Shown here: positions 11,362 to 61,939 of the stretch, piece after piece
How the letters are laid out: each line of letters begins with the position of its first letter
Position numbering within the stretch: the stretch's first letter is position 1
Made by a program: the position numbers and the translations under genes
Assembly: GCA_038087875.1 (NCBI GenBank)
Contig: CM075995.1
Span: forward strand, 1,924,001 to 1,988,000
Origin: Malacoraja senta
Taxonomy: Eukaryota
Direction: 5' to 3'
Length of the DNA: 64,000 nucleotides
The notes under the pieces: model-generated
The model's input: only the letters and a program-made list of their open reading frames with translations
Told to the model about the DNA's origin: nothing
Databases searched by the model: none

Positions 11362-11528
11362 CTCAAGATGCTCTAAAATGTACGGAGGGTTCGTCATTCC
11401 AAGCCGCAGCATCGCTCCCTCGGGAATCACTTCCACCAGTTTCCAAAGCAATGTGGGAAGATCTGTCCCGATATCTCTTCCGTAAGCACCTGTGTCTTCA
11501 CTGGTCAGCCATATTTCACAGACACCTT
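11362..11528 (-). CDS. CDKAL1: Internal coding exon of CDKAL1 (threonylcarbamoyladenosine tRNA methylthiotransferase, radical SAM), 167 bp
   Basis: Translates to (E)[55 protein letters not shown], recognisable as the vertebrate CDKAL1 radical-SAM segment. On the minus strand the acceptor is ttgacatgttttttcctcatgcAG|AAGGT (phase 1) and the donor is CTTGAG|GTaagg (phase 0). Neighbouring exons were not found in the window. Confidence 0.95.
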
Positions 11529-15905: not shown

Positions 15906-17004
15906 TGCCAACATTGCTTTAGATTCCAACCATGTCTTTATTGGTCACTTTTAATTTTCTTCCTATTGAATGAATGAATAATGAATGAATAAAATAATTA
16001 TTGGTCAATTATGTTTACATATAAGGAATCTGCATTGGTGTTTTGCTCGCAAAAGGATAAAAAAACACGAAATACAGCAGACAATTAAAAAATAAAACAT
16101 TATAATTTACACCTTCACTTTACACCTGCGGCCTTTTTTCTGATGCTCCGCCAAAAGTGAATAGTCTCCCATTATCCATTCTGGCCAGACACAACACCTT
16201 TTTATATGCTTCTATCAAATCTCCTCTCAGCATTCTCTTTACAAAGGAAAACAATTCCTGCCTCTCTAATTTACCCATATAGCGGTAGTTCCTCTATCAT
16301 AAAATCAATTCTCATACACCTTCTCTCGACCTCATCCTAATGCTTTCACGTGCAGACACAAGGTGGTGATTTACAAACAAAATACACAAAGTGCTGGAGT
16401 AACTCAATGGGCCAGACAGTATCTCTGGAAATCCAGCATCTAGGTGGCATGTACCGCCCCGCCTCTCTTCCAGCTTTCTCTCCACTACTACAATCAGTCC
16501 GAAGAAGGGTCTCGAGCTGAAACGTCACCCATTCCTTCTCTCCAGAGATGTGTCGATCTTCGGTTTAAACCAACATCTGCAATTCCTTCCTAATTCCATG
16601 CTGTATCTTTAAACTAAACTGAACATTCAATGCTTTTTCCAAGCTGCTAATGTTGTAAGATTGTTAAAATATTACTGAAATAACTTTACCACTGGAAAGA
16701 CGTGAAGCATTACATGAATAAAACTGTTTGCACTGGTAAACACATAAAAAAACACAAATAATCCAGTTTCTTGTTTACAGACAAATAGGTCCAGTTATCT
16801 TATTTGTTACAAATTAACCTCCCTCAGTTAGAACGAAAATTGCTCATAAATTATCATTACTATAATTACAATTAAACTAAACATTTTCAGGCATTAATTA
16901 TAAAATATTTTAATGTCACCATTACTCAACAAAATCTACCTGAAGAGCAGAAGATAGCAATTACAATATATTTTTGAACCCTTCACACTTAATTGATTGA
17001 ACTG

Positions 17005-19420: not shown

Positions 19421-20975
19421 CTGTGTCGGAAGGAACTACAGATGCTGCTTTATACCGAAGTTAGACACAAAATGCTGGAGTAACTCAGCGGTTCAGGCAG
19501 CACCTCCGGAGAAAAGGAATAGGCCCCCATTCCTTCATCAAACTATGGACGTTCAGTCGTGCTACACCTCCAACCCCCACCAGGAAGGTTTTAAGTATAG
19601 GGCGGCGCGACCGACGTTCGCAGCGGCCTCTGCAGTCCGTCCGGCTTTTTTTTTATTTTTGTCCCGTTGAATGAATAGTTTGTTGTGGTTTTTATATTGT
19701 TTTTAGCTGTGTATATGGGGGGCAGGGGGGGGGGGGACTTTTAAATCTCTTCCCTGTACGGGGGACCGATCTTTTCCCTGTCGGGGGTACACAAAAATGC
19801 TGGAGAAACTTTTCCCTGTCGGGTCTCCGTTGTCATTGGGGCCTAGCACCGTGGAGCGGTCTCCAACCGGAACGACCTGGGAGCTCCAGTTGCGGAGTAT
19901 GCAGACTTACCATCGTGGGGCTGGCTGACTTCGGAGCGTGGAGAGCTGTGGTGGCGCGCGGCTGCGACCCGACTCCGGAGCTCGGAGGCTCCAGCCGCAG
20001 GTCCGGTGGACGGTGACATCGGGAGCTCGCGGGTCCCTGGTGGGAGACCGCTTCTCCCGCCTGAGTTGCGGGGTTGAAAATGACCCGGAGCGGGACCTTA
20101 CATCGCCCAGCGCGGCTTTAACGGCCGCGGGACTTGCCATCGCCCGCCGGGGGCTCCAACATCAAGACCCGGAGCGGGGCCTTACATCACCCAGCGCGGC
20201 CTTAACGGCCGCGGGACTTGCCATCGCCCGCCAGGGGCTTTAACATCGGGAGAAGAATGGAACACAGGGGAGAGACAAGACTTTGCCTTCCATCACAGTG
20301 AGGAGGAGATTCACTGTGAAGGATGTTTGTGTAAATTGTGTTGGTTGTGTGTCTTGGTTCTTTTCTTGTTGTATGACTGCAGAAACCAAATTTCGTATGA
20401 ACTTCATACTTGAGGTTCAAATGACAATAAATAAATTGTATAATTGTATAATTAAGGCCCTCCATTTCTTCCTTGATCGCAGACCCAGCCAATTTCTCTC
20501 ATCAAACACTCTCCACCGCCTAGCAGAACTGGTCCTCACCCTTAACAGCTTCTTCTTCAACTCCTCCCACTTCCTACAGGTCAATGGGCACTCGCATGGT
20601 CCCCAGATATGCCTTTTTATTGAGTATGTCAAACAGTCCCTGTTCCAGGTGTACACTGGCCTTATCCCCCAACTCTATCTCCACCACATTGACGACTGCA
20701 TCGGGGCTACCTCCTGCACCCATGCAGAACTCATGGACTTTATGAACTTCACCACAAACTTCCACCCTGTCTTCAAATTCACCTGGACTATCTTGGACAC
20801 CCCCCTTCCCTTTCTTGATCTCACCGACTCCATCACAGGAGATAGACTATCGACTGACCTCTATTACAAACCTGACTTTGAGCCTGAAGAAGGTTTCCGA
20901 CCCGAAACGTCACCTATTCCTTTTCTCCACAGATGCTGCCTGACCCGCTTGAGTTACTCCAGCACTTTTTATCTA
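19421..20975 (+). mobile_element. Degenerate Penelope-like element with an RT fragment, fold-back ends and a nested CpG-rich retroposon
   Basis: Degenerate MDVQS..TS.PHQEG motif at 19540-19595 continues after the insert as KALHFFLDRRP..LAELVLTLNSFFFN..HIDDCIG..LPFLDL..TDLYYKP (20453-20875); hammerhead core at 20884-20911; inverted long end at 19421-19523. Confidence 0.8.
19597..20450 (+). mobile_element. CpG-rich non-autonomous retroposon (family C) with an internal 84-bp tandem duplication
   Basis: Splits the Penelope RT frame; unit gacccggagcggg... at 20082 and 20166; tail gacaataaataa(attgtata)n. Confidence 0.7.
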
Positions 20976-29550: not shown

Positions 29551-31967
29551 CGTATTTTCACTTTCAGCTTTTAGAAATCTTTATAGAAGCTCTATTGTCA
29601 ATACTTATTATTGGTTTCAAATAATGGAACTTTATTCTTAATCTGCATAACATAGCATTTATAGAGGCATTAATGTTTTCTATAAATGCTATTTTATGCT
29701 GATTAAACAGCTCTCTACATTTAAAGATGTGATAATTTTGGAATAAAGTTAGATTCCATTATTTTAAACCAACAAGTATTATAAATAGAGCTTCTATATA
29801 GATTTCTGAAAGCTGAATTTGAAAATACGAGTCCAACATAGCAGAATAACATGGATAGATACAAAATGCTGGTGTAACTCAGTGGATTAGGCAACGTCTC
29901 TGGAGAAAAACACTAGGTGACGTTTCGGGTCAGAAGCCTTCTTCAGACTAACCTCCTCCATCACTGACAACAGATAGTCATAGAGTGATACAGTGTGGAA
30001 ACAGGCCCTTCAGCCCAACTTACCCACAACGGCCAACATGTCCCAGCCACACTAGTCCCACCTGCCTGCGCTTGGTACATATCCAAACTTGCCTTATCCT
30101 TGTACCTGTCTAACTGTTTCTTAAACATTGGGATATTCCCCGTCTCAACAACCGCTTTTGGCAGCTTGTTCCATACACCCATCACTCTTTATGTGAAAAT
30201 GTACACTTTTTACCAAACATCATGTCCCTTCCCCCAATTACATGATGACGGGAACAGAATTAGCTTCATTGACCACAATAAACGCACAGTGTAAATCTGA
30301 AATAAAAGCAAAAAAATACTGAAGCTACTCAACAGGCCAGGGAGAATCAGACTGACTACCTTTCATTAGAGCTGGAAAAGTGAGAGCTGTTGACACAAGT
30401 AACTGCATGTGCTGGTTTATAAAAAAAAAGATGCAAAAGTGCTGGAGTAACTCAGCGAGTCAGGCAGCATCTCAGGAGACCATAGATAGATGACATTATG
30501 GGTTAGGACCTTCTTCACACCTGACCCGAAAAAGCATATATCCATACTTTTATGTCTATTTTTGCTGGAGTAACTCAGCGGGTCAGGCAACATCTCTGAA
30601 GGACATGGATAGGTGACGTTTCAGGTTGGGGCTCTTCTTCAGACACCAATGTGTCTGAAGAAGAGTTTTGACCTGCAACGACGCCTCTCCATGCCTTCCA
30701 GAAATATTGCCTAACATGCTGAGTAGCTCCAGTACTTGCCGTTTCTTTTGGAAAACTGGGAAAACGAGTATTTAACTTTGGGAGAAGGAGAGTCTGTAAA
30801 TGATCTAGAACAAGAGAATCCTGATGAAACCAACATCTAAGAGAGAAAGCTGACCTGCTGGAGAAGGGTAAATGATGGAAGAATACAGGATAAACTCACC
30901 ATACATAGATCAGTATGGGTGTCAGGGGTTATGGGGAGAAGGCAGGAGAATGGGGTTGTGAGGGAAAGGTAGATCAGCCATGATTGAATGGCGGAGTAAA
31001 CGATGGGCCAAATGGCTTAATTCTGCTTCTACAACTTATGAATTTATGAGGCAAACAGTCCTGCAGTTACGAGTTGCAGAACTTGTTTGTTGGCTGGAAA
31101 CCTGAAGCAAGAGAGAATAAGACAAGCCAAGCAGATCTGTGGAGAGAGAAGATAGACACAAAATGCTGGAGTAACTCAGTGGGACAGGCAGCATCTCTGG
31201 AGATAAGGAATGGATGACGTTTCGGGTCGTGACCCTTCTTCAGAATGGACGCGTTGGGCTGAAAGGCCTGTTTCCGTGCTGTATGACTCTTTCACCTTCT
31301 GCCCACAATTGCTCGTGCCCTTGCCCTTGCCAATGCATGCTGAACTTGTCCATTTCGTCTGGTGTGCACAACCTAAAGTTGTTGGACAACTTGTTCTATT
31401 TGATCTTCCGTTTGTGCACGTCGAGTTGATTGCATTAGTCGAAACAGGGCGGACCACGTGAAGGTTGCAATCTTCCACCCCAAATCTAGGTCACGACACA
31501 ACCTCCCTACAGATGTTCAGCATTAGTTTCACCCTCAACAATAACAATTTGACAAGTTAAAATTTGGAATCTACATCAGTGAACCATGTTTATTGGAAGC
31601 CTATTTACAAAAGGAGTTTGACCTTCAGGTGGAATCCTTCAAGCTTATTTCAAAGTTTTTTTTCCCTCCTGAACAAAGTGCATGCCATTTAGTCCATTGA
31701 TCATCCATCCGTTGAAAAATAAACAAGAGTACTTTTTTTTTAATTGACACATCACATTCTTAAAAGATGGCAGATAAAATACAGTAATCTGAACTGTTTG
31801 AAGAGACTGGACCACAAGATTTTTCTGATTTTAAATTGAAAGTATATTAAATTATGATATGTTATGATATTATGAAATATTAATTTCTCCAACATTAAGC
31901 TTTAAATTTAAATACGTTTGACTAAAATCAAACACCTTAATACCAAGAAAACGGCAGATGGTCTAGA

Positions 31968-33179: not shown

Positions 33180-33775
33180 CTAGACCAAGTGGGACCCGTT
33201 GGGTCCGTCCCTCAACGCAGCTAGAGAGGGGGGGGGGGTGGAGAGGGAGGGGGGAGGGGTGCAGAGAGGGAGAGGCAGGGGGGTAAAGATTGAAGGGTGG
33301 GTGGAGGGGGGGCTCACGGCGTCACAGTGGGGGGCTGGTTCCGGAACGCAACACTCCACCACTCACCCATAGGTCCCAATATTCACCACTCCCTAGAGAG
33401 GGGGGGCAGAGAGGGAGGGGGCAGAGAGGGAGGGGGGACAGAGAGGGAGGGGGCCAGAGAGGAAGGGGGCAGAGAGGGAGGGGGGCACAGAGGGAGGGTG
33501 GCAGAGAGGGAGGGGCAGAGACGCGGGGGGCAGAGAGGGAGAGGGGGGGGGGCAGAAAGGGAGGGGACACAGAGGGAGGGGTAGAGGCAGCACCTGCCCA
33601 GGTCATAGAGCAGCAGCCTCCACGAGGCTGCAGGTGGGTGTAGACCTGAGCGAGCCCCCCTCCCTGCCTCCACGCCCCCTCTCCTCACCCCTCTACCGTC
33701 TCCTCCCCGCAATCCTCCGCCCTCTCCTCCCCCTCTCCCTCCACCCTCTCCTCCCCGCTCACCATCCCCCCCCCC

Positions 33776-33975
33776 NNNNNNNNNNNNNNNNNNNNNNNNN
33801 NNNNNNNNNNNNNNNNNNNNNNNNNNNNNNNNNNNNNNNNNNNNNNNNNNNNNNNNNNNNNNNNNNNNNNNNNNNNNNNNNNNNNNNNNNNNNNNNNNNN
33901 NNNNNNNNNNNNNNNNNNNNNNNNNNNNNNNNNNNNNNNNNNNNNNNNNNNNNNNNNNNNNNNNNNNNNNNNNNN
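33776..33975. other. Assembly gap (200 N) within G/C-rich low-complexity repeats
   Basis: Run of N; the flanks share ctcaccatcccccccccc and gtagaggcagcacct.cccaggtcatagagca. Confidence 0.98.
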
Positions 33976-34583: not shown

Positions 34584-34945
34584 GCCAGCACCGCCATTCA
34601 ATGTGATCATGGCTGATCATCCCCAATCAGTAACCCGTTCCTGCCTTCTCCCCATATCCGCTGACTCCGCTATCTTTAAGAGCCCTATCTAGCTCTCTGT
34701 TGAAAGTATCCAGAGAACCTGCCTCCACCGCCCTCTGAGGCAGAGAATTCCACAGACTCGCCACTCTCTGTGAGAAAAAGTATTTCCTCGTCTCCGTTCT
34801 AAATGGCTTACTCCTTATTCTTAAACTGTGGCCCCTGGTTCTGGACTCCCCCAACATCGGGAATATGTTTCCTGCCTCTAGTGTGTCCAAACCCCTAACA
34901 ATCTTATATGTTTCAATAAGATTCCCTCTCATCCTTCTAAACTCC
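34584..34945 (-). mobile_element. Young CR1-like 3' end nested in the Helitron (its tail lies at 34117-34133)
   Basis: ORF MRGNLIETYKIVRGLDTLEAGNIFPMLGESRTRGHSLRIR..WNSLPQRAVEAGSL. Confidence 0.85.
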
Positions 34946-35607
34946 AGGCCTGAGCGAGGCTGCGGCCAGCATGGACCCGTGTGAGGCCCGGAGCGATCTG
35001 AGGACGGTCAAAAGCAGCGGAGGGCCGGCCGATCGTGGCTTCCGCGAGGGGAAGCCCACCCACCCGTGTGACAGACGATCGGACGTGGGGGACGGAGAGG
35101 AGGTCGTCCCCTGTGACGGCCAAAGATCGCCAGGTGGGATTGGGATCACCAGCGAGGAAAAGGCGACCCGATTCCCCGAGTCCCTGCGATCGATGGAACA
35201 ATGGCAGGTCTCCCTAGACGGCCTCTCCCAGAGGGAGTAATGGCCGTCAAGGCCACCATCCCATCGCGCTGCCCTGCGCCCACGCGGCGATAACGGCCGC
35301 TGCCGCCATGTTCTAGAACTTCAAGGAGCCTAGCGGAGCACGCAGCACGACCTGAGCAGCAGTTTAAAAATGCTAAGTGACAAATTTAAAGAAGTGAAAG
35401 TTAAGAAGCCAAGAAGTACAGAAGACAGAACAGGGATGATGTCACTCGCAGCGCGAGCAGCGTCAGGCAGTCAGATCCATTGTGATGTCATCAGCGAGAC
35501 CATCTCATTTATTTTCTATGTTATTTGAAATTTTTGAAAATTTTCATAAATAACTCGAGAAATAATGCATGAAATTTTCAGATAAGGTGATTTTTGACAT
35601 CATGGAA

Positions 35608-35868: not shown

Positions 35869-36884
35869 ATGTAAGAATTTCACCGTTGGCGCATCGAGTT
35901 TTCAAGGAGATGTGAAACATACACAAACATCACACAAATAAATGCACATCCAAGTTCAGAGTTTTATAAGTATAGAGATGGGTGAATGCAGGTATGTGGA
36001 CTAGGGGAAATGGGGCATCTTAGTCTGCATGGGCAAGTTGGGCCTCAGGGATTGTTCCCAAGACTCTATGATGGGGTCCAACATGGGAGGGCCAAAGAGA
36101 AAGACAGATTATTCACAACCAGAAATGTTGAATCGTTAAACTAAAACTAAACATTCCATTATAGATCTAACCTGAGAGTTGGTTCACACAATCAAGCGTA
36201 AGTCACATCAACAACTGAAGCCAATTCTGTGATTCCTTTCTCATGATACCTCCATATACAATGGATCTTCTGCTTGGACTAGTAATTTTTTCACAGAATC
36301 GGTCATTGAATCATTATAGAAACATAGAAATTAGTTGCAGGAGTAGGCCATTCGGCCCTTCGAGCCTGCACCGCCATTCAATATGATCATGGCTGATCAT
36401 CCAACTCAGTATCCTGTACCTGCCTTCTCTCCATACCCTCTGATCCCTTTAGCCACAAGGGCCACATCTAACTCCCTCTTAAATATAGCCAATGAACTGG
36501 CCTCGACTACCCTCTGTGGCAGAGAGTTCCAGAGATTCACCACTCTCTTGTGTGAAAAAAGTTCTTCTCATCTCGGTTTTAAAGGATTTCCCCCTTATCC
36601 TTAAGCTGTGACCCCTTGTCCTGGACTTCCCCAACATTGAAGATGCCTATTTGAGACCATATGTTTCCATAACAGCAATTTGGGCTCACTTCCCATACCT
36701 GTGGAACAACTCACTTCTGGGCGGTAACCCAGCAAATGCTCTTTGCACTCTTGCCCTTTGTCTTGCTATTCCACACTCAGAGCCATTGAGAATTCCGGAT
36801 TTGATGTGCGTACAAGAATTCTGACAAATGACACTCAAATCTGAAACCATGAAACATTTGGAACCAAATAACTGCAAGTGCAAA

Positions 36885-37120
36885 AGGACACCTAGTGCTG
36901 GAGCAACTCAGCAGGTCAGGCAGCATCTCTGGAGAAAAGGAATAGGTGACGTTTCAGGTCGAGATCCTTCATCAGACGTCATCAATTGAGTCTGATAAAG
37001 GGTCTCGACCCGAAATATCACTAATTCCTTCTCTCCAGAGATGCTACCTGATCTGCTGAATTACTCCAGCATTTGTGTCTATCTTTGGTGTAAACTAGTA
37101 TTTGCTCTTCTTCTTACACA
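36885..37120. mobile_element. Older Penelope-like fold-back insert
   Basis: Inverted arms around 36985; core CTGATGA..GAAACGTC on the minus strand at 36948-36975. Confidence 0.75.
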
Positions 37121-39492
37121 TGGTTAGGTGCTGGACCTGCTGAGTTTCACCAGCACTTTCTGTCCAAATATTAACATTGTCCCTCATTTTGGAAAGCATA
37201 ATTTCAGACCTCACTTTACAAGAACGTCTTAACATTTGTGCTAGCTTCACTGAGGCAGCTTTACTAAAAACTCAGATTGGCTATGAAGGGCTATTACAGT
37301 ATATGCCAGCGAACAATTCCTAATAACTCATTTTAAGTACTTGAAAGTGTCAGGTGCAAAGCAAGCAAAATGCTTTATGAGAACAAAATCCTGAAAATCA
37401 CAGACAACTTACAATACTCATTGCTCACCGATGATAGAAGTGATTTAACTGTTTAATGAGTTACTACGCATATCACATTTATTTTTCATAGTTTTAACCT
37501 CTTCCTCTCAGCTGAATTCATGGAACCAAACCACACACTCTCCTGCAATATCGACAATAAGATGCATTGTTGTTCAAACATGTTTGTCAGCCTTGCATTG
37601 AAATCCCCAGTTATTTTGTGCTTTTGGACTTAACGGATAAAAACACAAATTAAGAAACCCACCTTATTAAATGGAAAATATTAGTCAACATTTATTTCAA
37701 AAAACAAAAATGCCAGCACCAGAGAAATTGTGGGAATTCAATTTTTAAAAAATAAATGCAAATAATAGCATTTACTTGTTCATGTTTCAAATGTCCTTTT
37801 GAAAAGCTCAATAGGGACAAATGAAAAAGGCAGATTAAATTAAACTCAGTCACAGATCCAGTGAATTATTAATGGCATTTGGCAGTGAAGACGTTTTTAT
37901 TTAGTAAAACTCCTCTACAGTCTGAATCTGATCGTGAATAGAAAGCACTGAACAATTAAAATAGCAACCAGTCACTTTTGAACAGAATCAGCAACCAAGG
38001 AAATAATAAGAATCCTGTAGATAGACACAAAAAAGCAGGAGTAACTAAGTGGGCAGGCAGCAACTCTTGAGAGATGAATGGGTGACGTTTCGGGTCGAGG
38101 TCCTTCTTCAGACTGGTTAGGGATAAGGGAAACGAGTAATATAGACGGTGATGTGGAGAGATAAAGAACAATGAATGAAAGATATGCAAAAAAGTAACAA
38201 TGATAATGGAAACAGGCCTTTGTTAGCTGTTTGTAGGGTGAAAATGAGAAGCTTAGTGCAACTTGGGTGGGGGAGGGATAGAGAGAGAGGGAATGTCAGG
38301 GCTACCTGAAGTGAGAGAAATCAATATTCATACCACTGGGCTGTAAGCTGCTCAAGCAAAATATGAGATGATGTTCCTCCAGTTTGTATTTAGCCTCACT
38401 CTGACAATGGAGGAGACCTGGGACAGAAAGGTCTGTGTAGGAATAGGAAGGAGAGTTAAAGTGTCCAGCAACCAGGAGATCAGTGTTAAAGAAGGAACTG
38501 CAGATGCTGGAAAATCGAAGGTACACAAAAATGCTGGAGAAACCAGCGGGTGCAGCAGCATCTATGGAGCGAAGGAAATAGGTAACGTTTCGGGCCGAAA
38601 CCCTTCTTCAGACTGATAGGGGGTGGGGAGAAGAAAGGAAAAAAGGAAAAGGCGGAGGAGGAGCCCGAGGGCTGGGGGAGGGGAGGAGACAACAGATGGC
38701 TGATGAAGGGGAGGGGACAGCCAGGGCTAGCAGAATTGGGAGAATTCAACGTTCAGGCCACCAGGATGTAGACTGCCCAAGCGGAATATGAGGTGCATTT
38801 CCTCCAATTTACGGTGTTGCTCGCTGTGGCCATGGAGGAGACCCAGGACAGAGAGGTCAGATACGGAATGGGAGGGGGGAGTTGAAGTGCTGAGCCACCG
38901 GGAGTTCAGGTTGGTTATTGCGGACGGACCGGAGGTGTTCGGCGAAACGATCGCCAAGCCTCCGCTTGGTCTCACCGATGTAGATCAGCTGGCATCTAGA
39001 GCAGCGGAATGCAATAGATGAGGTTGGAGGAGATGCAGGTGAACCTCTGTCGCACCTGGAACGACTGCTTGGGTCCTGGAATGGAGTGGAGGGGGGAAGT
39101 GAAGGGACAAGTGTTGCATCTCTTGCGGTTGCAAGGGAAGTACCAGGGGAGGGGGTGGTATGGGAGGGAAGGGAAGAATTGACAAGGGAGTTACGGAGGG
39201 AGCGGTCTTTGCGGAAGGCAGACATAGGGGGAGATGGGAAGATGTGGCGAGTGGTGGGGTCACGTTGGAGGTGGCGAAACTGACGGAGGATCACTTGTTG
39301 TATGTGACGGCTGGTGGGGTGAAAGGTGAGGACTAGGGGGACTCTGCCTTTGTTGTGAGTGGGGGGATGGGGAGAGAGAGCAGTGTTGCGGGGTATGGCA
39401 GAGACCCTGGTGCGAGCCTCATCTATGGTGGAGGAGGGGAACCCCCGTTCCCTGAAGAATGAGGACATTTCAGATGCCCTGGACATTTCAGA

Positions 39493-40344
39493 TACACTTC
39501 TTCCCACCCTGCTTCCTGTAAGGACTCCATCCCCCACTCCCAATTCCTCCGTCTACGCCGCATCTGCTCCCAGGATGAGGCGTTCCACACCAGGGCATCT
39601 GAAATGTCCTCATTCTTCAGGGAACGGGGGTTCCCCTCCTCCACCATAGATGAGGCTCGCACCAGGGTCTCTGCCATACCCCGCAACACTGCTCTCTCTC
39701 CCCATCCCCCCACTCACAACAAAGGCAGAGTCCCCCTAGTCCTCACCTTTCACCCCACCAGCCGTCACATACAACAAGTGATCCTCCGTCAGTTTCGCCA
39801 CCTCCAACGTGACCCCACCACTCGCCACATCTTCCCATCTCCCCCTATGTCTGCCTTCCGCAAAGACCGCTCCCTCCGTAACTCCCTTGTCAATTCTTCC
39901 CTTCCCTCCCATACCACCCCCTCCCCTGGTACTTTCCCTTGCAACCGCAAGAGATGCAACACTTGTCCCTTCACTTCCCCCCTCCACTCCATTCCAGGAC
40001 CCAAGCAGTCGTTCCAGGTGCGACAGAGGTTCACCTGCATCTCCTCCAACCTCATCTATTGCATTCGCTGCTCTAGATGCCAGCTGATCTACATCGGTGA
40101 GACCAAGCGGAGGCTTGGCGATCGTTTCGCCGAACACCTCCGGTCGGTCCGCAATAACCAACCTGAACTCCCGGTGGCTCAGCACTTCAACTCCCCCTCC
40201 CATTCCGTATCTGACCTCTCTGTCCTGGGTCTCCTCCATGGCCACAGCGAGCAACACCGTAAATTGGAGGAAATGCACCTCATATTCCGCTTGGGCAGTC
40301 TACATCCTGGTGGCCTGAACGTTGAATTCTCCCAATTCTGCTAG
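39493..40344 (+). CDS. 5'-truncated Penelope-like ORF: RT thumb, Cys-rich linker and GIY-YIG endonuclease
   Basis: Open frame YTSSHPASCKDSIPHSQFLRLRRICS...FPCNRKRCNTC...NLIYCIRCSRCQLIYIGETKRRLGDRFAEH...VAQHFN...GLNVEF*. The C-x4-C-x2-C linker is characteristic of Neptune-group PLEs. No RT core or 5' start is present. Confidence 0.88.
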   Translation, partial: YTSSHPASCKDSIPHSQFLRLRRICSQDEAFHTRASEMSSFFRERGFPSSTIDEARTRVSAIPRNTALSPHPPTHNKGRVPLVLTFHPTSRHIQQVILRQFRHLQRDPTTRHIFPSPPMSAFRKDRSLRNSLVNSSLPSHTTPSPGTFPCNRKRCNTCPFTSPLHSIPGPKQSFQVRQRFTCISSNLIYCIRCSRCQLIYIGETKRRLGDRFAEHLRSVRNNQPELPVAQHFNSPSHSVSDLSVLGLLHGHSEQHRKLEEMHLIFRLGSLHPGGLNVEFSQFC

Positions 40345-40460
40345 CCCTGGCTGTCCCCTCCCCTTCATCAGCCATCTGGTTGTCTCCTCCCCTCCCCCAG
40401 CCCTCGGGCTCCTCCTCCGCCTTTTCCTTTTTTCCTTTCTTCTCCCCACCCCCTATCAGT

Positions 40461-40488
40461 CTGAAGAAGGGTTTCGGCCCGAAACGTT
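40461..40488 (+). ncRNA. Minimal type-I hammerhead ribozyme motif in the Penelope-like 3' UTR (mirror copy at 38584-38611, minus strand)
   Basis: CTGAAGA-A-GGGT(TTCG)GCCC-GAAA-CG-TT: catalytic core, stem II with a UUCG loop, and palindromic ACGT in place of stem III. Confidence 0.7.
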
Positions 40489-41214
40489 ACCTATTTCCTT
40501 CGCTCCATAGATGCTGCTGCACCCGCTGAGTTTCTCCAGCATTTTTGTGTAACCAGGAGATCAGGTTGGTTCACACGGGCTGAGTGAAGGTGTTCCGCGA
40601 ACCGATCGCCCAGTCTGCGTTTGGTTTCGCCGATGTGTGAGTCCACATCTTGAACAAACGGATACAGTGGATGAGGTTGGAGGAGGTGCAAGTGAACCTC
40701 TGCGTAACCTGAAAGGACTGTCGGGGTCCCTGGACAGAGTCGAGGGAGGAGGTATAGGGACAGGTGTTGCATCTTCTGCAGTTGCAGGGGAAGGTACCTG
40801 GGAAGGGGGTGGTTTTGGGGGGCAGGGATGTGTTAACCAGGGAGATGCGGAGGGAACGGTCTCTGCAGAAATCGGAAAGGGGTGGAGATGGGAAAATGTG
40901 GCTGGTGGTGGGATCCCGTTCGAAGTGGCGAAAATTTCAGAGGATTATGCGTTGTATACGACGTCTGATGGGGTGGAAGGTAAGGACAAGGGGGACTCTG
41001 TCTCTGTTGCGACTAGGGGGAGGGGGAGCAAGGGCGGAACAGCGAGGTACCGAGGAGACACGAGTGAGGGCCTCATCTATGACGGGAGAGGGGAACCCCG
41101 GTTCACTAATGAATGAGGACATCTCGGTTGTTCTAGTACTGTGCCTCTCACTCCATTCACACCAAATGCTGTGAATTCTTTTCAATGTTGATTGGCAAAA
41201 TACTTATAGTGTTG

Positions 41215-42580: not shown

Positions 42581-42685
42581 GTTCAGGAGGTCAGGCAGCA
42601 TCTCTGGACACTCTTCTTCCAACTGATTTTAGTAGGGGGAGAAAAAGCTGTCAGAGAAATGAGGACAGGACAAAGCCTGGTAAGT

Positions 42686-42869
42686 ACACAAAAATGCTGG
42701 AGAAACTCAGCGGGTGCAGCAGCATCTATGGAGCGAAGGAAATAGGCAACGTTTCGGCCCGAAACATTGCCTATTTCCTTCGCTCCATAGATGCTGCTGC
42801 ACCCGCTGAGTTTCTCCAGCATTTTTGTATACCTTCGATTGTCCAGCATCTGCAGTTCCTTCTTTAACA
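42686..42869. mobile_element. Young Penelope-like fold-back insert nested in an older Penelope-like 3' UTR
   Basis: Near-perfect hairpin centred at about 42758; TSD CAAAGCCTGGTAAGT at 42671-42685 and 42870-42884. Confidence 0.88.
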
Positions 42870-44446: not shown

Positions 44447-45415
44447 GTGGCACGGTGGCTCAGCGGCAGAGCTGCTGGCTTACAGCGTCAGAGACCCGGG
44501 TTCGATCCTGACTAGGGCTGCTTGTCAATAGACAATAGGCGCAGGAGTAGGCCATTCGGCCCTTCGAGCCATTCAATGTGATCATGGCTGATCATCCACA
44601 ATCAGTACCCCGTTCCTGCCTTCTCCTCATATCCCCTGACTCCGGTATCCTTAAGTGACCTTTCTAGCTCTCTCTATAAGGTATCCAAGAGAACCGGTCT
44701 CCACCGCCCTCTGAGGCAGAGAATTCCACAGACTCACAACTCTCTGTGTGAAAAAGTAATTCCTCATCTCCGTTCTAAATGGCTTACCCCTTATTCTTAA
44801 ACTGTGGCCCCTGGTTCTGGACTCCCCCAACATCGGGAACATGTTTCCTGCCTCTAGCGTGTCCAAACCATTAATAATCTTATATGATTCAATAAGATCT
44901 CCTCTCATCCTTCTAAATTCCATAGTATACAAGCCCAGCCACTCCATTCTCTCAGCATATGACAGTTCCGCCATTCCGGGAATTAACCTTGTGAATCTAC
45001 GCTGCACTCCCTCAATAGCAAGAATGTCCTTCCTCAAACACGGAGACCAAAACTGCACACAATATTCCAGGTGTGGTCTCACTAGGGCACTGTACAACTG
45101 AAGAAGGACCTCTTTGCTCCTATACTCAACTCCTCTTGTTATGAAGGCCAACATGCCATTCGCTTTCTTCACTGCCTGCTGTGCCTGCATGCTTACTGCA
45201 TGTCTGTACGGAGTTTGTACGTTCTCCCCGTGACCACGTGTGTTTTCTCCGAGATCTCCGGTTTCCTCCCACTCCAAAGACGTGCAGGTTTGTAGGTTAA
45301 TTGGCTTGCTATAAATGTAAATTGTCCCTAGTGTGTGTAGGGTAAGTGTCAATGTGCGGGGACACGGTGGGCCGAAGGGCCAGTTTCCGCCCGTAGCTCT
45401 GTTAACTTAACTAAA
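44447..45415. mobile_element. V-SINE (+) containing a nested CR1/HER1-like LINE fragment (about 44526-45200, minus strand)
   Basis: ORF QQAVKKANGMLAFITRGVEYRSKEVLLQLYSALVRPHLEYCVQFWSP...WNSLPQRAVETGSL; SINE head and body lie on either side. Confidence 0.9.
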
Positions 45416-45957
45416 ACCTTCTGCATCGTGGATTTATGACCTTTTCAATACAGTACGATGCATTTTGCCAAATCACATCACTTTTATTTTCATTTTGTTT
45501 ATTACCTTCATTCAAGTAGCACTCACTGTTACATGAACTCCACATTGGCAGTAGATTTTGGATAAATCAGAAGTCAGGCAGTGAACCTTAATTCCATGTG
45601 TATAAAGGAACTGCAGATGCTGTTATAAACCGAAGATAGACACAAAAGTTCTGGAGTGACTCAGCGGGTCAGGCAGTATCTCCGGAGAAAAAGGATCGTG
45701 ACATTTTGGGTCAGGTCCCTTCTTCTGGCCCTTCTTGGGTCTGAAGATGGGTCTCGCCTGAAATGTCACCCATCCTTTTTCTCCAGAGATGCTGCCTGAC
45801 CTGCTGAGTTATTCCGGCACTTTGTGTCAACCTTAATCCCATGGTGGGGAAAATTTTGGAGAACATTACAAGGAACTGGACTTATGTATAATTGGAAAGG
45901 CAAGGACTGATTAGAGATACAGCGTGGGCTTTGTGACAGTGAAATCTTGTCCCACAA

Positions 45958-47050
45958 GGGCGGCACAGTGGTGCACAGTGGTGCAGCAGTAGAGTTGTTG
46001 CCTTGCAGCACTAAAGACCCGGGTTACATCCTAACCACAGGTGCTGTCTGTATGGAGTTTGTATGTTCTCCCTGTGATCACGTGAGTTACTCCGGTTTCC
46101 TTCCACACTCCAAAAACGTACATGTTTGCACATCATTTGGATCTGATAAATTGCCCCAAGTGTGTAGGATAGTGCAAGTATACGGTATGCTCGTTGATCG
46201 GCACGGACTCTGTGGGCCGAAGGGCTTGTTTCCACGCTGTATCTCTTAAGAAAAATTTTATGGTCTAAAGCATATTATTATAATCTTTATTGAACAACCA
46301 TTGTGTCTCCAAACAACTCATTTTTAAAGGATAGAATATCAATATTCCCCTATTCTATGATCACAATTTTATTCATTTAAATTATTTTCTGGGTAAGGTT
46401 TTGATTATATTTCATTTTTATATATTATTTCTTTATGGATGTTAGTTTACCCGAAGCAAAATGAAGTGAATGATAAAACTGCTTGCTATTTTCCAGTTCA
46501 CAAACTGATGAATTCTTAATGTTGACACAAGGAACTGCTGATGCTGGTTTACAAAAAAAGATACAAAGTGCTGGAGTAACTCAGCAGATCAGGCAGCATC
46601 TCTGGAGAACATGGATGGTCTCCAGAGATGCTGCCTGATCTGCTGAGTTCTCCAACACTTTGAGTTCTTAACATTGTTCATCTTGCTCAGTAAAATTATT
46701 AGGAACCAAAAACATCCCAAAATCCTGGAAAAAAATAAATTCAATGATAAGGTCACAAAAAGGGCGGCAATGTGATGCAGTAGTAGAGTTGCTCCCTCGC
46801 AGCGCCAGAGACCCGGGTTCGATACTGACTATGGGTGCTGTCTGTACGGATTTTGTACGTTCTCCCTCCAGGTGTTCCGGTTTACCCCCACAGTCCAAAG
46901 ATGTACCGGTTTGCAGGTTATTTGGCTTTAGTAAAATATGTAAAATTGTCTTTCGTGTGTAGGATAGTGTTAGTGTACGAGGTTGTTTGCTGGTCGGCAG
47001 GGACTCGGTGGGCCGAAGGGCCTGTTTCCACGCTGTACCTCTAAAGTCTG
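45958..47050 (+). mobile_element. Two V-SINEs (45958-46250, 46762-47050) with an older Penelope-like fold-back between them (46523-46660)
   Basis: SINE consensus motifs; inverted gcagcatctctggag arms. Confidence 0.75.
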
Positions 47051-49325: not shown

Positions 49326-50437
49326 AAAACAGTATTCATAAGATCAGCCCTGATATTAGTTTGGAAGACATGCGCCAATTTTAATGGGCTTCAAACAATT
49401 ATGCACACACACACACATATTTTGCACTTAACAACCAGTAACAGTCTACAACTGCAGATGCTGGTTTAAACCGAAGATATACACAAAAAGCTGGAGTAAC
49501 TCAATAAGAGATTCTGCCTGTTCCGCTGAGTTACTCCAGCTTTTTGTGTCTATCTACAGTCTACAATTGGCTGGATGTTTGAGATAAGGATTCAAAGCCA
49601 ATATTTTTAGGCCAAGATATGCTGCAGATAGACACAAAAAGCTGGAGTAACTCAGCAGGACAGGCAGCATCTCTGGAGAGAAGGAATGGGTGACGTTTCA
49701 GATCGAGGCCCTTCTTCAGACTGAGGGATATTCTGCTTCAACTTGAGTTCAGCTTGAGGGAATTTCATATTTCCTGGTTCTTCATGTAATTCTTGTTCCA
49801 CAAATATTATTAGAGAATCGAAGAATGTAACATGATGCTTACAAGGATTAATTCTCTTGAAGCATATTGTATGTGCCTTTAGCAGTTAGGACTCAGTTTC
49901 TTCACACCAGTGGCATTTATCTTAATTGACACCATTTATGCATGTGGAATTTTAACTAGTAGTCTGCAAAGACACTTTTAATACATTAGATGGAATTGAT
50001 TTTTCCCTGGGTCTAATTCAAACATTAGAACCAGGTTAAAATCGGCCAGAGCAAAGCGGAATTATATTTATTTAGTAATTATATTTAGTAATATAATAAT
50101 AATAATAATAATAGATTTTATTTATATAGCGCTTTTCAGGACTCAAAGTCGCTTTACAATTGAGAGTCAGGAATAAACAAAACAAAATAGAGCAGTAAGA
50201 CACAGGAGCCATCCGATCATAGCTGATCAATTTTTCCCTCTCAACCCCATTCTCCTGCCTTCTCCACGTAAACTTTGATGTCCTTAAAAAAAATTAAAAA
50301 ATCAATATTTATTTTTAAAATTGGATCAGGAAAGCAGCCAAAGTTGAGGAATACAAAGGTTATTAGGTAAAGGGAAACTAAGATGTCCAAGCATTGTCAA
50401 CCCTTGCTCCTTAAGCACAATCGGTTTGAAGCCTGTT

Positions 50438-53941: not shown

Positions 53942-54151
53942 TGTAAGATGGAACTGCAGATGCTGGTGTACACCGACGATAGGTACAAAGTGCTGGAGTA
54001 ACTCAGGAAGTCATGCAGCATCTGATGAGAAAAGGAATAGGTGACGTTTCAGGTCGAAACCCAATTCCTATACCTAAACCTGTCACCTATTCCTTATCTC
54101 CAGAGATGCTGCCTGACCCGCTGAGTTACACCAGCAGGTTGTGTCTATAAG
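53942..54151. mobile_element. Older Penelope-like fold-back insert
   Basis: Long end left, short end right; TSD GGGAAGAATTAG at 53930-53941 and 54152-54163. Confidence 0.78.
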
Positions 54152-54849
54152 GGGAAGAATTAGAATGTTCACTGTAGTCAATGGGGCCTTGTTAGTATCT
54201 TCTTCCTTTTAGTAATGTTATTTACAAAACTTAGTCAGATGTGACACAAATTAAAAAAAAGGCCTCACTACTGTCACTGAATTACTGCATTTTCATACAA
54301 GCTATAATTTTTTTTTTAAAGAGCAGTTTTCCTGTTCTAAAACAGTAGAGGTTATAACAGTATTGTAAAACAAATATTTCAAACCAATAAATCTACATGC
54401 ATTCGATACATCACCCACTTGTTTTCATAAGTTGTGATATAATAAAGTAATATCCGTTCACTAAAAACAGTTCTCTTTGTGTGACAATATTCGCCGGTAA
54501 GGTACACCAGCACCTCTAAGAAGTTAAAAGCTAGATTTTCACATATTTAGGATTTGTTATATTACAGAATGATTATTGAAGTTTAATAAATAAAAAGTAT
54601 TAACTAAATTAGGCAGGCAGTCCCTTAAACAGCTTTGATGTGTAGGAAGGAACTGCAGATGCTGGTTTATAGATAAAGTCTGAAGAAGGTTTCCAACCTG
54701 AAACGTCACCTATTCCTTTCCTCCAGTGATGCTGCCTGACACGCTGAATTACTCCAGCATTTTGTGTCTATCTTCTTTAAACAGTTTAAGCAGCTTGTAG
54801 GACGATGATCCACCATGGGCATGAACAGCAAGGAACGATATGTTAACCA

Positions 54850-58145: not shown

Positions 58146-58849
58146 TTTGCCATTTATCGTATTATAATTCACTCTGGTAACTAATGTACAATGATGTTAA
58201 ACTATATTCTGTTCTCTGGTATTTTTCTCTTTGCACAACCTGTTGCCTTGCGTATGGCCTGATTGTACATTGTATAGTATGATTTGATTTGACTGGTTAG
58301 CATGCAAACAACAGCCTGTATTTCAGTGGACATGTTAATAATAAATCAATTCAAAGCAGTCCCCCCCCCCACCCTCACCCCCACTGCCCCCCCCAACCTG
58401 GACTCACTGCTAATTCTCCCTTCCCCCTCCAACGACATTCCTTCCTCTAGCTTCACAATTCGCTACTCTTCAATCCTTTAGTCTCACACCTTCTAGCTTT
58501 TCAATTCTGGCCTTTGTCCAAACATGTGCCGATCAAAAAATGACTTTGCCTGTATTCACCTATTAAGTGCCATGATTTGTCCTGCCCCTCCTCCCTTCCA
58601 GCTTTCTTGACCCCCAAACCCCCCATCCCACCCATTACAATGAGTCTGAAAAAGGGTCCCAAACCAAAACATCACCTGTCCATGTTCTCCAAGGAACCTG
58701 CCTAACCCGCTGAGTTACTCCAGCATTTTGCTTCCTGATCTGCCACTGTCTGCATTTCTAAAAGAGAAACCAAAAATTGCCGGACTACTCAACAGGTCGG
58801 GCAGCATCTACAGAGAGCAGAACAGGGTTCACATTTTATTTCTATAGTG

Positions 58850-59059
58850 TAGATATACACAAAATGCTGGAGTGACTCAGCAGGACAGGCAGCCTGAAGA
58901 AGGGTCTCGACCCGAAACGTCCTCAGTCTGAAGAATGGGTCTCGACCCGAAACGTCACCCATTCCTTCTCTCCAGAGATGCTGCCTGTCCTGCTGAGATA
59001 CTCCAGCATTTTGTGTCTATCTTCGGTTTAAACCAGCATCTGCAGTTCCTTCCTACACA
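58850..59059. mobile_element. Older Penelope-like fold-back insert with two tandem hammerhead cores
   Basis: Cores at 58894-58921 and 58928-58956; flanked by a duplicated tttctatagt. Confidence 0.8.
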
Positions 59060-59509: not shown

Positions 59510-60200
59510 TTAGTTTATTGTCATGTGGACCATGGTTCAGTGAAAAGCTTTTGTTGCGTGCTAACCAGTCAGTATAAAGACTATACATGATTACAATCGG
59601 GCTGTCCACAGTATACAGATACATGGTAAAGGGAATAACGTTTAGTGCAAGATGATGTCCAGTAAAGTCGGTTTAAAGATAGTCCGAGGGTCTCCAATGA
59701 GGTAGATGGTAGCTCACGACTGCTCTCTAGTTGTTGATAGGATGGTTCAGTTGCCTGATAACAACTGGGAAGAAACTGTCTCTGAATCTGGAGGTGTGCG
59801 TTTTCATACTTCTGTACCTATTGCCTAATGGGAGCTGGTGGCCTTGTCAAAGCAGTGTGAAGTATAAATGGGGTCAATAGAAGGGAGGTTGGTTTGTGTG
59901 ATGGTCTGTGTTATGTTCACTATTCTCTGCAATTTCCTACAGTTTTAGATGGTTCCCAAACCAAGCTGTGATGCATCCCGATAAAATGCTTTCCGTGGCG
60001 CACTTTCCGTAGAAGTTGGTGAGAGTTGTAGGGTGGACAAAAGTGCTGGAGAAACTCAGCGGGTGCAGCAGCGTCTCTGGAGCGAGGGAAATAGGCAACG
60101 TTTCGGGCCGAAACCCTTCTTCAGACTCAGAGAGTTGTAGGGGATGTGCCAAACTTACTAAGCCTTCTAAGAAAATCGAGGCATTGCTGTGTTTTCTTGG
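59510..60200 (-). mobile_element. Rex1/Babar-like LINE fragment with a nested young Penelope-like insert (60034-60129)
   Basis: TTLTNFYGKCATESILSGCITAWFGN motif; insert flanked by the 13-bp TSD GAGAGTTGTAGGG; hammerhead core at 60097-60124 (minus). Confidence 0.8.
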
Positions 60201-61155: not shown

Positions 61156-61939
61156 ATGTTCCACTGTGGTGCTGCCAGTCGCACACGTTCTCGCTGGTTC
61201 TTTAGGCGTAGGAATTAACTCCTCAAGCAACATAAGATGCAACTTTTATTTTGCAACATGCTGAACTAATTACATAGCTTGCGACAGGTTTTGAATGAGT
61301 GCAAACGTTATCACGTTCTGTTTATTCATTATTGTCTAACCTGTTATTCTGCTACAAGGTTTCAAGTAATTTGCATGCACCAAGCTACAAATTAAACATT
61401 GCACTAAACATCAAAAAGGTTCACAGAACTTCACGTAAGAAGAAATCTGTTACTACTGTGTAGAAAGGAACTGCAGATGCTGGTATATACAAAAGATAGA
61501 TACAAAGTGTTGGAGTAACTCAGTGGGTCAGGCAGCATCTCTGGAGAAAAGGAATAGGTGACGTTTCAGGTCGAGACCCTTCCTCAGTTTAGTCTCCAGA
61601 GATGCTGCCTGACCCGCTGAGTTAGTTCAGCACATTGTGCCTATCTCCTGTTGCTACTTGGAAGGTTGACAGTGGGTGAAATTAAGGAAGTCAGCACAGT
61701 ATTTATATTCTACTTGACTAGCAAGCAAGTTCCACTTTCAGAAGTACATCAGGTACATTTTGGGGCACCACAGTTGTTAGACTAGTAATCCAAAGGCTTG
61801 AACAATCCGTGGATGGCAGTTGAAATCTCATTATTGCAAAGGTGGATCTTCAAATCTACCTCGTTCCGGACCTTGGACTTTTCCCTCTGGAACAGTAACA
61901 CTACTCTGCCGCAAAACTATTTCTCCTTGTTAACCTCTC

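Follow-up and report, generated by a model that had tools for sequence, protein, structure and literature searches.

A 64,000-nucleotide (nt) stretch of the Malacoraja senta genome (the window; GenBank assembly GCA_038087875.1, contig CM075995.1, positions 1,924,001 to 1,988,000) contains a 2,067-bp insert at 38484-40550. The insert consists of two shortened copies of a young Penelope-type element that lie head to head, arrived in a single event and sit inside an older copy. This structure is itself ordinary for Penelope-like elements and represents an insertion mode that has already been described. What is new here is a mixed-end rule, under which each of the ten head-to-head pairs bounded by a target-site duplication (TSD) in the window combines one tailed and one short outer end, together with the freedom of either arm to reach further 5'. 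We lean towards an explanation in which the two ends of such an insertion are primed separately, from both nicks in the target (twin priming), and we include in it a hybrid of fold-back and a second complementary DNA (cDNA).

Structure of the insert and its centre

The insert is bracketed by two identical 14-bp repeats, and its TSD score of 14 compares with a 99th percentile of 8.5 in a null of 300 random position pairs. Because one TSD encloses both copies, we regard the pair as the product of a single insertion event. Its parts, and those of the host element, are as follows.

38470-38483, no strand: left TSD, 14 bp, with the same letters as 40551-40564
38484-38522, minus strand: 39-nt Penelope tail, on the left copy only, by which the left arm overshoots the right arm's end
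38523-39482, minus strand: left arm, a 5'-truncated copy with part of the reverse transcriptase (RT) thumb, the linker, GIY-YIG, the 3' untranslated region (UTR) and the pseudo-long terminal repeat (pLTR)
39479-39492, no strand: centre junction, made up of a CTGG microhomology (39479-39482), two native upstream nt and an 8-nt insert (39485-39492)
39493-39589, plus strand: 97 unpaired nt, the right copy's longer 5' end (RT thumb codons), assigned from the joint evidence below and aligning to the thumb of relatives
39590-40550, plus strand: right arm, which stops at a short (untailed) 3' end
40551-40564, no strand: right TSD, with the same letters as 38470-38483
38019-38483, minus strand: 3' part of the older host element, with the end of GIY-YIG, the 3' UTR, the pLTR and a short end (74.8% identity with the young copy)
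40565-41137, minus strand: 5' part of the older host element (75.5% identity with the young copy)

The initial annotation had placed a palindrome in the GIY-YIG coding region of an older Penelope element, and we reproduced its coordinates, arms and 14-bp TSD, with a host that is 75% identical to the young copy. When the insert is excised, the host frame is continuous through the C-terminal half of GIY-YIG at the insertion point. Alignment of the left and right arms, a check that the annotation had proposed, gave near-identity and no high divergence: 957 of 958 aligned bases match, with 1 substitution and 5 one-base indels. The earlier description of the two arms was accurate in its layout and overlooked the 39-nt 3' tail of the left copy, which recurs at 42831-42869 and on older subfamilies. 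Inverted 5'-truncated structures had been called typical of Penelope, and the same layout is in print in the accessible text of PMC3846280 and PMC8557442. The insert almost certainly comes from a young Neptune-type Penelope-like retroelement, as a non-autonomous insertion in which both copies are 5'-truncated. It has no function of its own and is a passenger.

The two arms are separated by 107 nt (39482 to 39590). The annotated spacer of about 107 bp thus has the right length, but it holds no foreign sequence and is the right copy's own 5' end. In all four sequencing runs compared, other copies of the family carry an opposite-strand joint of 39482 to 39589. Because these copies join the two positions directly, 39493-39589 is element sequence contiguous with the right arm, and the right copy extends 97 nt further 5' than the left copy. 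Loose ends at 39493 in runs X1 and X2 (agreement 0.72-0.73) show a native upstream sequence with CTGGAC at its end, and the left arm ends in CTGG. The 8-nt insert at 39485-39492 is a copy of 39467-39474, 18 bases to the left. The 13-nt junction duplication of the initial annotation was located at 39463-39475 and 39481-39493, and is explained by the 4-nt microhomology plus the 8 locally copied nt.

It is highly improbable that the palindrome is an assembly or chimeric-read artefact in which a fold-back read doubled one copy. Such a read would double the flank, not give a 14-bp direct TSD and a continuous host frame. It would also leave the 39-nt one-arm tail and the templated insert unexplained, and nine other pairs have the same layout. 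Counting for an artefact, none of the reads and contigs listed bridges 38483/38484 or the centre of the locus, and residual assembly indels occur here. Over 836 nt of unique flank, the assembly and run X1 (the best DNA match) differ by 6 gap letters and by no substitution. At 37266, an extra base in unique DNA is missing from run X1 and from run X6 of another organism, a sign of residual assembly indels in the region. A 200-N assembly gap with G/C-rich simple repeats on both sides lies at about 33775-33975, 4.5 kb from the insert.

The differences between the arms bear on the same question. At all six, the reads list the letter of the right arm as the variant, with the left arm as the deviating one; three of the indels break the left arm's frame. 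The annotation had the arms differing mostly by single-base indels in homopolymers. Five of the six differences are indeed one-base indels. Four of these are within or next to stretches of 2-6 equal bases, and the fifth, at 38543, lies outside any homopolymer. The left-arm deviations are probably assembly errors. Real error-prone copying of one arm is an unlikely source for them. A single locus would be hidden among the many family copies in the reads, and the comparison of arm letters is no proof of error.

Outer ends of head-to-head pairs and the mode of insertion

A BLAST search of the window with two native pLTR-plus-tail stretches gave 35 clusters, from which 15 entries (14 loci) with a minus arm to the left of a plus arm were picked by eye. 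Ten of the 15 entries are bounded by a TSD (11-18 bp, no more than 2 mismatches). In all ten, one outer end is tailed and the other is short, a result with a chance of at most 0.001 if the ends were independent. The arm that reaches further 5' is untailed in five pairs (A, E, G, I and K, where E is the 38484-40550 insert and G differs by 4 nt only) and tailed in four (H, J, L and M); pair F is ambiguous. Over the pLTR core, pairs A and E show 0 arm-to-arm substitutions, compared with 2-3 between inserts, and the arms of pair F differ by 3. The tailed arm of pair K is 32 nt long. The TSDs are 62% A+T, compared with 55% for the window, and no (TA)n targeting was seen. Three of the five young-family inserts of the window sit in older Penelope pieces (background 9.3%; P ~0.007, post hoc). 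The other TSD-bounded pairs are listed here.

1098-1292, no strand: sister mini-palindrome of the young family (A), with an internally deleted tail on the left, a short end on the right and a 14-15-bp TSD, in an older pLTR
42684-42869, no strand: sister mini-palindrome of the young family (F), with a short end on the left, a tail on the right and a 15-16-bp TSD, in an older 3' UTR
45599-45828, 46520-46660, 49451-49555, 53942-54148, 54640-54773, 58849-59059 and 61458-61647: further TSD-bounded pairs

At the centre of pair F (42751-42765), both arms share a natural 15-nt hairpin, that of the hammerhead-like stem II described below.

If each outer end is an RT start site, every head-to-head insert takes two primings. 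Under twin priming, the GIY-YIG endonuclease would nick both target strands 14 nt apart, and each 3' OH would prime reverse transcription on element RNA, so that two primings may occur in one event. The left copy would start at the distal site and be tailed; the right copy would start at the proximal site 39 nt upstream and be untailed. The centre would be closed by annealing at the 4-nt microhomology, with one slippage copying 8 local bases, and fill-in would create the TSD. Both arms would come from one template lineage, either as two cDNAs off one RNA or as a folded-back long cDNA meeting a short tail-primed cDNA. In vitro, the anole Poseidon protein cuts and extends both target strands, and its tail is the distance between two RT start sites; a dimer is predicted (PMC11167929). 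In the window family, the tail pairs with the pLTR as an 8-bp closing stem in 13 aligned copies, and the fold z is -3.0 with the tail and +0.3 without it.

In self-priming, or fold-back, one template (cDNA or antisense RNA) would be copied into a hairpin from which endonuclease processing leaves one tail. Fold-back is proposed for head-to-head junctions in the accessible text of PMC3846280, and that of PMC8557442 ascribes the tail to endonuclease-mediated resolution. It accounts for the identical arms, the 4-nt microhomology and the hairpin centre of pair F, and the six deviations, all on one arm, could be error-prone copying. However, a copy cannot outreach its template arm at the 3' end, yet in pairs A, E, I and K the tail is on the shorter-5' arm. 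The insert, whose longer-5' arm is without a tail, therefore cannot arise by plain fold-back of a single cDNA. Trimming of the hairpin by a cut of fixed polarity would always put the tail on one arm class, and is disfavoured because both classes of 5' reach occur. In addition, both outer ends match RT start sites in PMC11167929. We keep fold-back as a tentative, less probable alternative because later deletions at the centre could blur the argument from reach.

We consider it quite unlikely that the centre is instead a later scar, left when a palindrome of greater length or perfection formed a cruciform, was cut and was mended by microhomology-mediated repair; the junction and the 5' reach would then both be uninformative on insertion. 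End joining by polymerase theta has as its signature a microhomology with a locally templated insert, a likeness that we count in favour of a later scar. Short inserts are also found at the centres of pairs G, I, J, K and M. A later scar, however, leaves the one-tail rule at the outer ends unaccounted for; the young insert has had little time, and joining during insertion is expected to leave the same scars.

Several points weigh against twin priming. No strand difference in start-site use is reported in PMC11167929, so pairs that are always mixed are unexplained. Palindrome centres can be re-cut and repaired later, blurring the argument from 5' reach, and no insertion intermediate was observed. 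The census covers one 64-kb window, with candidates picked by eye from 35 pLTR clusters. Five entries (four loci: B, C, D and N) have no TSD and were excluded from the count; both outer ends of B resemble tails (scores 30 and 56), and C and D appear to be nested. The internally deleted tail of pair A scores 30, below the null 99th percentile of 36, and for the TSDs of H, K and M the scores do no more than reach the null 99th percentile. Many copies in the window are single-armed, and the 8-bp tail stem has one compensatory change only.

The host element offers a further coincidence. Its homology to the young family stops at 41137, the position equivalent to 39589, and the left arm begins at 39590 on the same scale. 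The two ends thus coincide within one base, for which we roughly put the chance, post hoc, at a few in a thousand. A cDNA paired with the resected host strand could set such an end; chance or a shared stop site could also produce it. A narrower reading combines obligate twin priming (distal site at one nick, proximal site at the other) with host-strand pairing that sets the cDNA trim or fold-back point in older relatives. It would explain the left arm starting at 39590 against a host end at 39589 and fits the nesting of three of the five young inserts; we hold it to be doubtful. A coarse test for a family-wide truncation hot spot at 39589 found no depth step, with neighbouring bins similar, and no TSD of the host element was found. 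Beyond 41137, one weak match that may be a decayed continuation of the host lies 80 bp further out, within an apparent other repeat; 3 of 1000 shuffles equalled it.

Other pLTR-derived sequences were noted in the window. Inverted pLTR groups of differing subfamilies, nested or TSD-less, lie at 16352-16592, 30388-30740 and 36860-37165, and the first looks double-tailed. A minimal insertion at 19786-19808 consists of 23 bp from the short end of the young family, flanked by perfect 15-bp repeats. A single-armed young pLTR with a 13-bp TSD (60034-60129) lies in an apparent long interspersed nuclear element (LINE) RT region and begins at the hammerhead-like motif, like many solo copies. Two LINE 3' fragments with open RT C-terminal frames (34622-34946 and 44597-45406) are 93% alike over 235 nt; we take them to be CR1-like.

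Family, age and genomic setting

The right copy contains an open coding remnant.

39493-40344, plus strand: open frame of 283 amino acids, with RT thumb, C-x4-C-x2-C linker and GIY-YIG with CCHH residues

As the initial annotation had stated, a thumb-linker-GIY-YIG frame is open in one arm. It spans 39493-40341 (stop codon 40342-40344) and has neither a start codon nor the RT core. Its Pfam GIY-YIG match is borderline (E 2.4e-4; 21.8 bits, just below the curated cut-off of 22.6). Among 1,301 candidates, 98 longer relatives could be aligned along the entire frame, and most of them have an RT Pfam domain; the best named relative (62%) is from Stegostoma tigrinum, and the best matches suggest a cartilaginous fish as host. 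In an alignment with 12 of the 98, the relatives carry DKG and YIDD motifs, and the frame starts at the RT thumb, behind their YIDD and FLD motifs. Judged from these alignments, the frame is the 3' third of a Penelope-like open reading frame (ORF) and would be unable to move by itself. A search of PDB by sequence gave 0 matches. A metagenome pattern scan gave one match, in a bacterial coding region without a BLAST match to the window, which we dismissed as chance.

Feature definitions for Penelope-like elements were taken from the accessible parts of PMC3846280 and PMC8557442. We found the features of an endonuclease-bearing member: a C-terminal GIY-YIG, a pLTR, an inverted 5'-truncated copy, a tail and a TSD. 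The thumb precedes the endonuclease, which has a CxxC after the first GIY-YIG strand and two His residues. The annotation held that the CxxxxCxxC linker marks the Neptune group. The linker fits Neptune, but alone it is not diagnostic, since a CX2-5CxxC linker is common to Neptune, Nematis and Naiad in the available text of PMC8557442; it does exclude Penelope/Poseidon. A C-terminal endonuclease with CCHH residues excludes Naiad, Chlamys and Hydra. A survey of 35 genomes, as far as its accessible text goes, reports only Neptune and Poseidon from vertebrates (bioRxiv 10.64898/2026.07.22.740005). Because the family has a C-terminal CCHH endonuclease and a vertebrate host, Neptune is the likely label, set by these two features and the linker.

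We compared the locus with sequencing runs of other organisms. The host element's end is present in organism D too (a contig of run X6 spans 37100-38074), and the orthologous flank has 35 differing letters in 979. At ten subfamily positions (38653, 38715, 38722, 38733, 38769, 38797, 38798, 38929, 39078 and 39399), the insert's letters are replaced in ~94-100% of organism D depth, and organism A carries the insert's letter in part. Organism D, the only label compared of six other organism labels, has related subfamilies but not that of the insert. These six labels (runs X3-X15) hold 33-41% of the sampled words of the locus's left half. The comparison supports a subfamily, and hence an insertion, younger than the split from organism D, in a host element older than that split. 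The near-identical arms and the replaced subfamily letters also point to a recent insertion. Of the earlier claim of a very recent single event in an active family, the youth, the one TSD and the near-identical arms were borne out; "active" was an overstatement. Summed contig depth in run X1 shows a high-copy family, with millions on the element and 25.6 on the flank, values that were not used as copy number. Run X2 has almost no depth on the unique flank.

Both pLTRs carry a motif that resembles a minimal hammerhead ribozyme.

38584-38611, minus strand: minimal-hammerhead-like core, left pLTR, from comparison of letters with the description in the accessible text of PMC4209133
40461-40488, plus strand: minimal-hammerhead-like core, right pLTR, compared by eye with the same description

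By eye, 40461-40488 has the catalytic core, the unpaired base before stem II, the G-C first pair and the palindromic helix III. The core is kept in most copies of pLTR alignment A2. Helix I could form only 2 bp, compared with the 4-5 bp expected, and the predicted minimum-free-energy fold of the monomer is another hairpin, not the ribozyme shape. Rfam gave 0 matches in the window at gathering score, with no hammerhead; at E up to 10 on 40300-40560 it gave 4 weak unrelated matches, again with no hammerhead. Poly(A) RNA of organism D showed no sharp molecule ends, which is no test of cleavage.

The gene context was examined through a splice-site scan of the window.

11362-11526, minus strand: internal exon of a MiaB-like tRNA methylthiotransferase gene (TIGR01578)

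The exon matches TIGR01578 positions 178-231 of 421 (E 1.9e-21). Of the 531 ORFs on the minus strand from 11.6 to 64 kb, 216 have 90 non-repeat bases, and no further methylthiotransferase exon was found among these. Given this exon and no other among the ORFs scanned beyond it, the insert is probably intronic, 27 kb away from the exon and upstream of it. The annotation had named a CDKAL1 intron; the exon supports the intronic position, and CDKAL1 is the animal member of this family.

As RNA, 96% of the bases of the insert are paired in a predicted fold, and the insert would form a long hairpin in the pre-mRNA. The proposed ~1 kb of double-stranded RNA (dsRNA) is matched by a folding prediction, and its editing or processing into small interfering RNA would be a further prediction. 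Among the sequencing runs listed, no RNA run contains the locus (shares <0.2 were disregarded). With regard to RNA editing, the base changes in poly(A) RNA of organism D (A>G 55, T>C 32) are like those of run X6 (50 and 28); organism D may lack the insert, so these are no test of the locus. That RNA also has a strand excess, the reading of which depends on the library type. No RNA read of organism D lay over the unique intron at 37183-38012.

Comparison with known systems

The insert is a clean natural product for the question of how inverted copies and one-sided tails arise. Both the end-pairing rule and the free choice of which arm reaches further 5' lend themselves to counting in any genome of the group, where they tell twin priming apart from self-priming. 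Its near-perfect, kilobase-sized intronic hairpins also make this young, high-copy Neptune family of a vertebrate a good system for studying how dsRNA is handled; no effect on the host gene was seen here.

LINE-1 twin priming offers a parallel, in which both target nicks prime cDNA and the inner ends join by microhomology. Its two pieces come from different parts of the RNA, whereas here the copies overlap almost fully and have two fixed start sites; pair K, with its 32-nt tailed arm, resembles the non-overlapping form of LINE-1.

Published descriptions already cover head-to-head copies, one-sided tails and nesting, in the accessible text of PMC3846280 and PMC8557442 and also of PMC8969392. 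In searches of the open-access literature, neither the mixed-end rule nor twin priming was found stated for Penelope-like elements. As described in the available text of PMC3846280 and PMC8557442, Pen2a_Av shares with the insert the head-to-head arrangement within one TSD, a 30-40-bp tail at one end and a GIY-YIG at the C terminus, and it likewise sits, oppositely oriented, inside another Penelope element (Pen2a in Pen3). In these rotifer cases, the inverted copy is pLTR-sized and the TSD is 8-10 bp; here the inverted copy is 960 bp, both copies lack the RT core, and the TSD is 14 bp (11-16 bp in the window).

With the Neptune clade, the insert shares the C-x4-C-x2-C linker before GIY-YIG, the CCHH residues and a vertebrate host, and it differs in that no (TA)n targeting was seen at its TSDs. 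The Poseidon element of Anolis carolinensis (PMC11167929) is similar in its two 3' ends one tail apart, its hammerhead-like motif in the pLTR and its tail stem-loop. In contrast, it belongs to another clade without the Cys linker and prefers AT-rich cut sites, whereas the target here is not AT-rich, and inverted products are not discussed in the main text of that paper.

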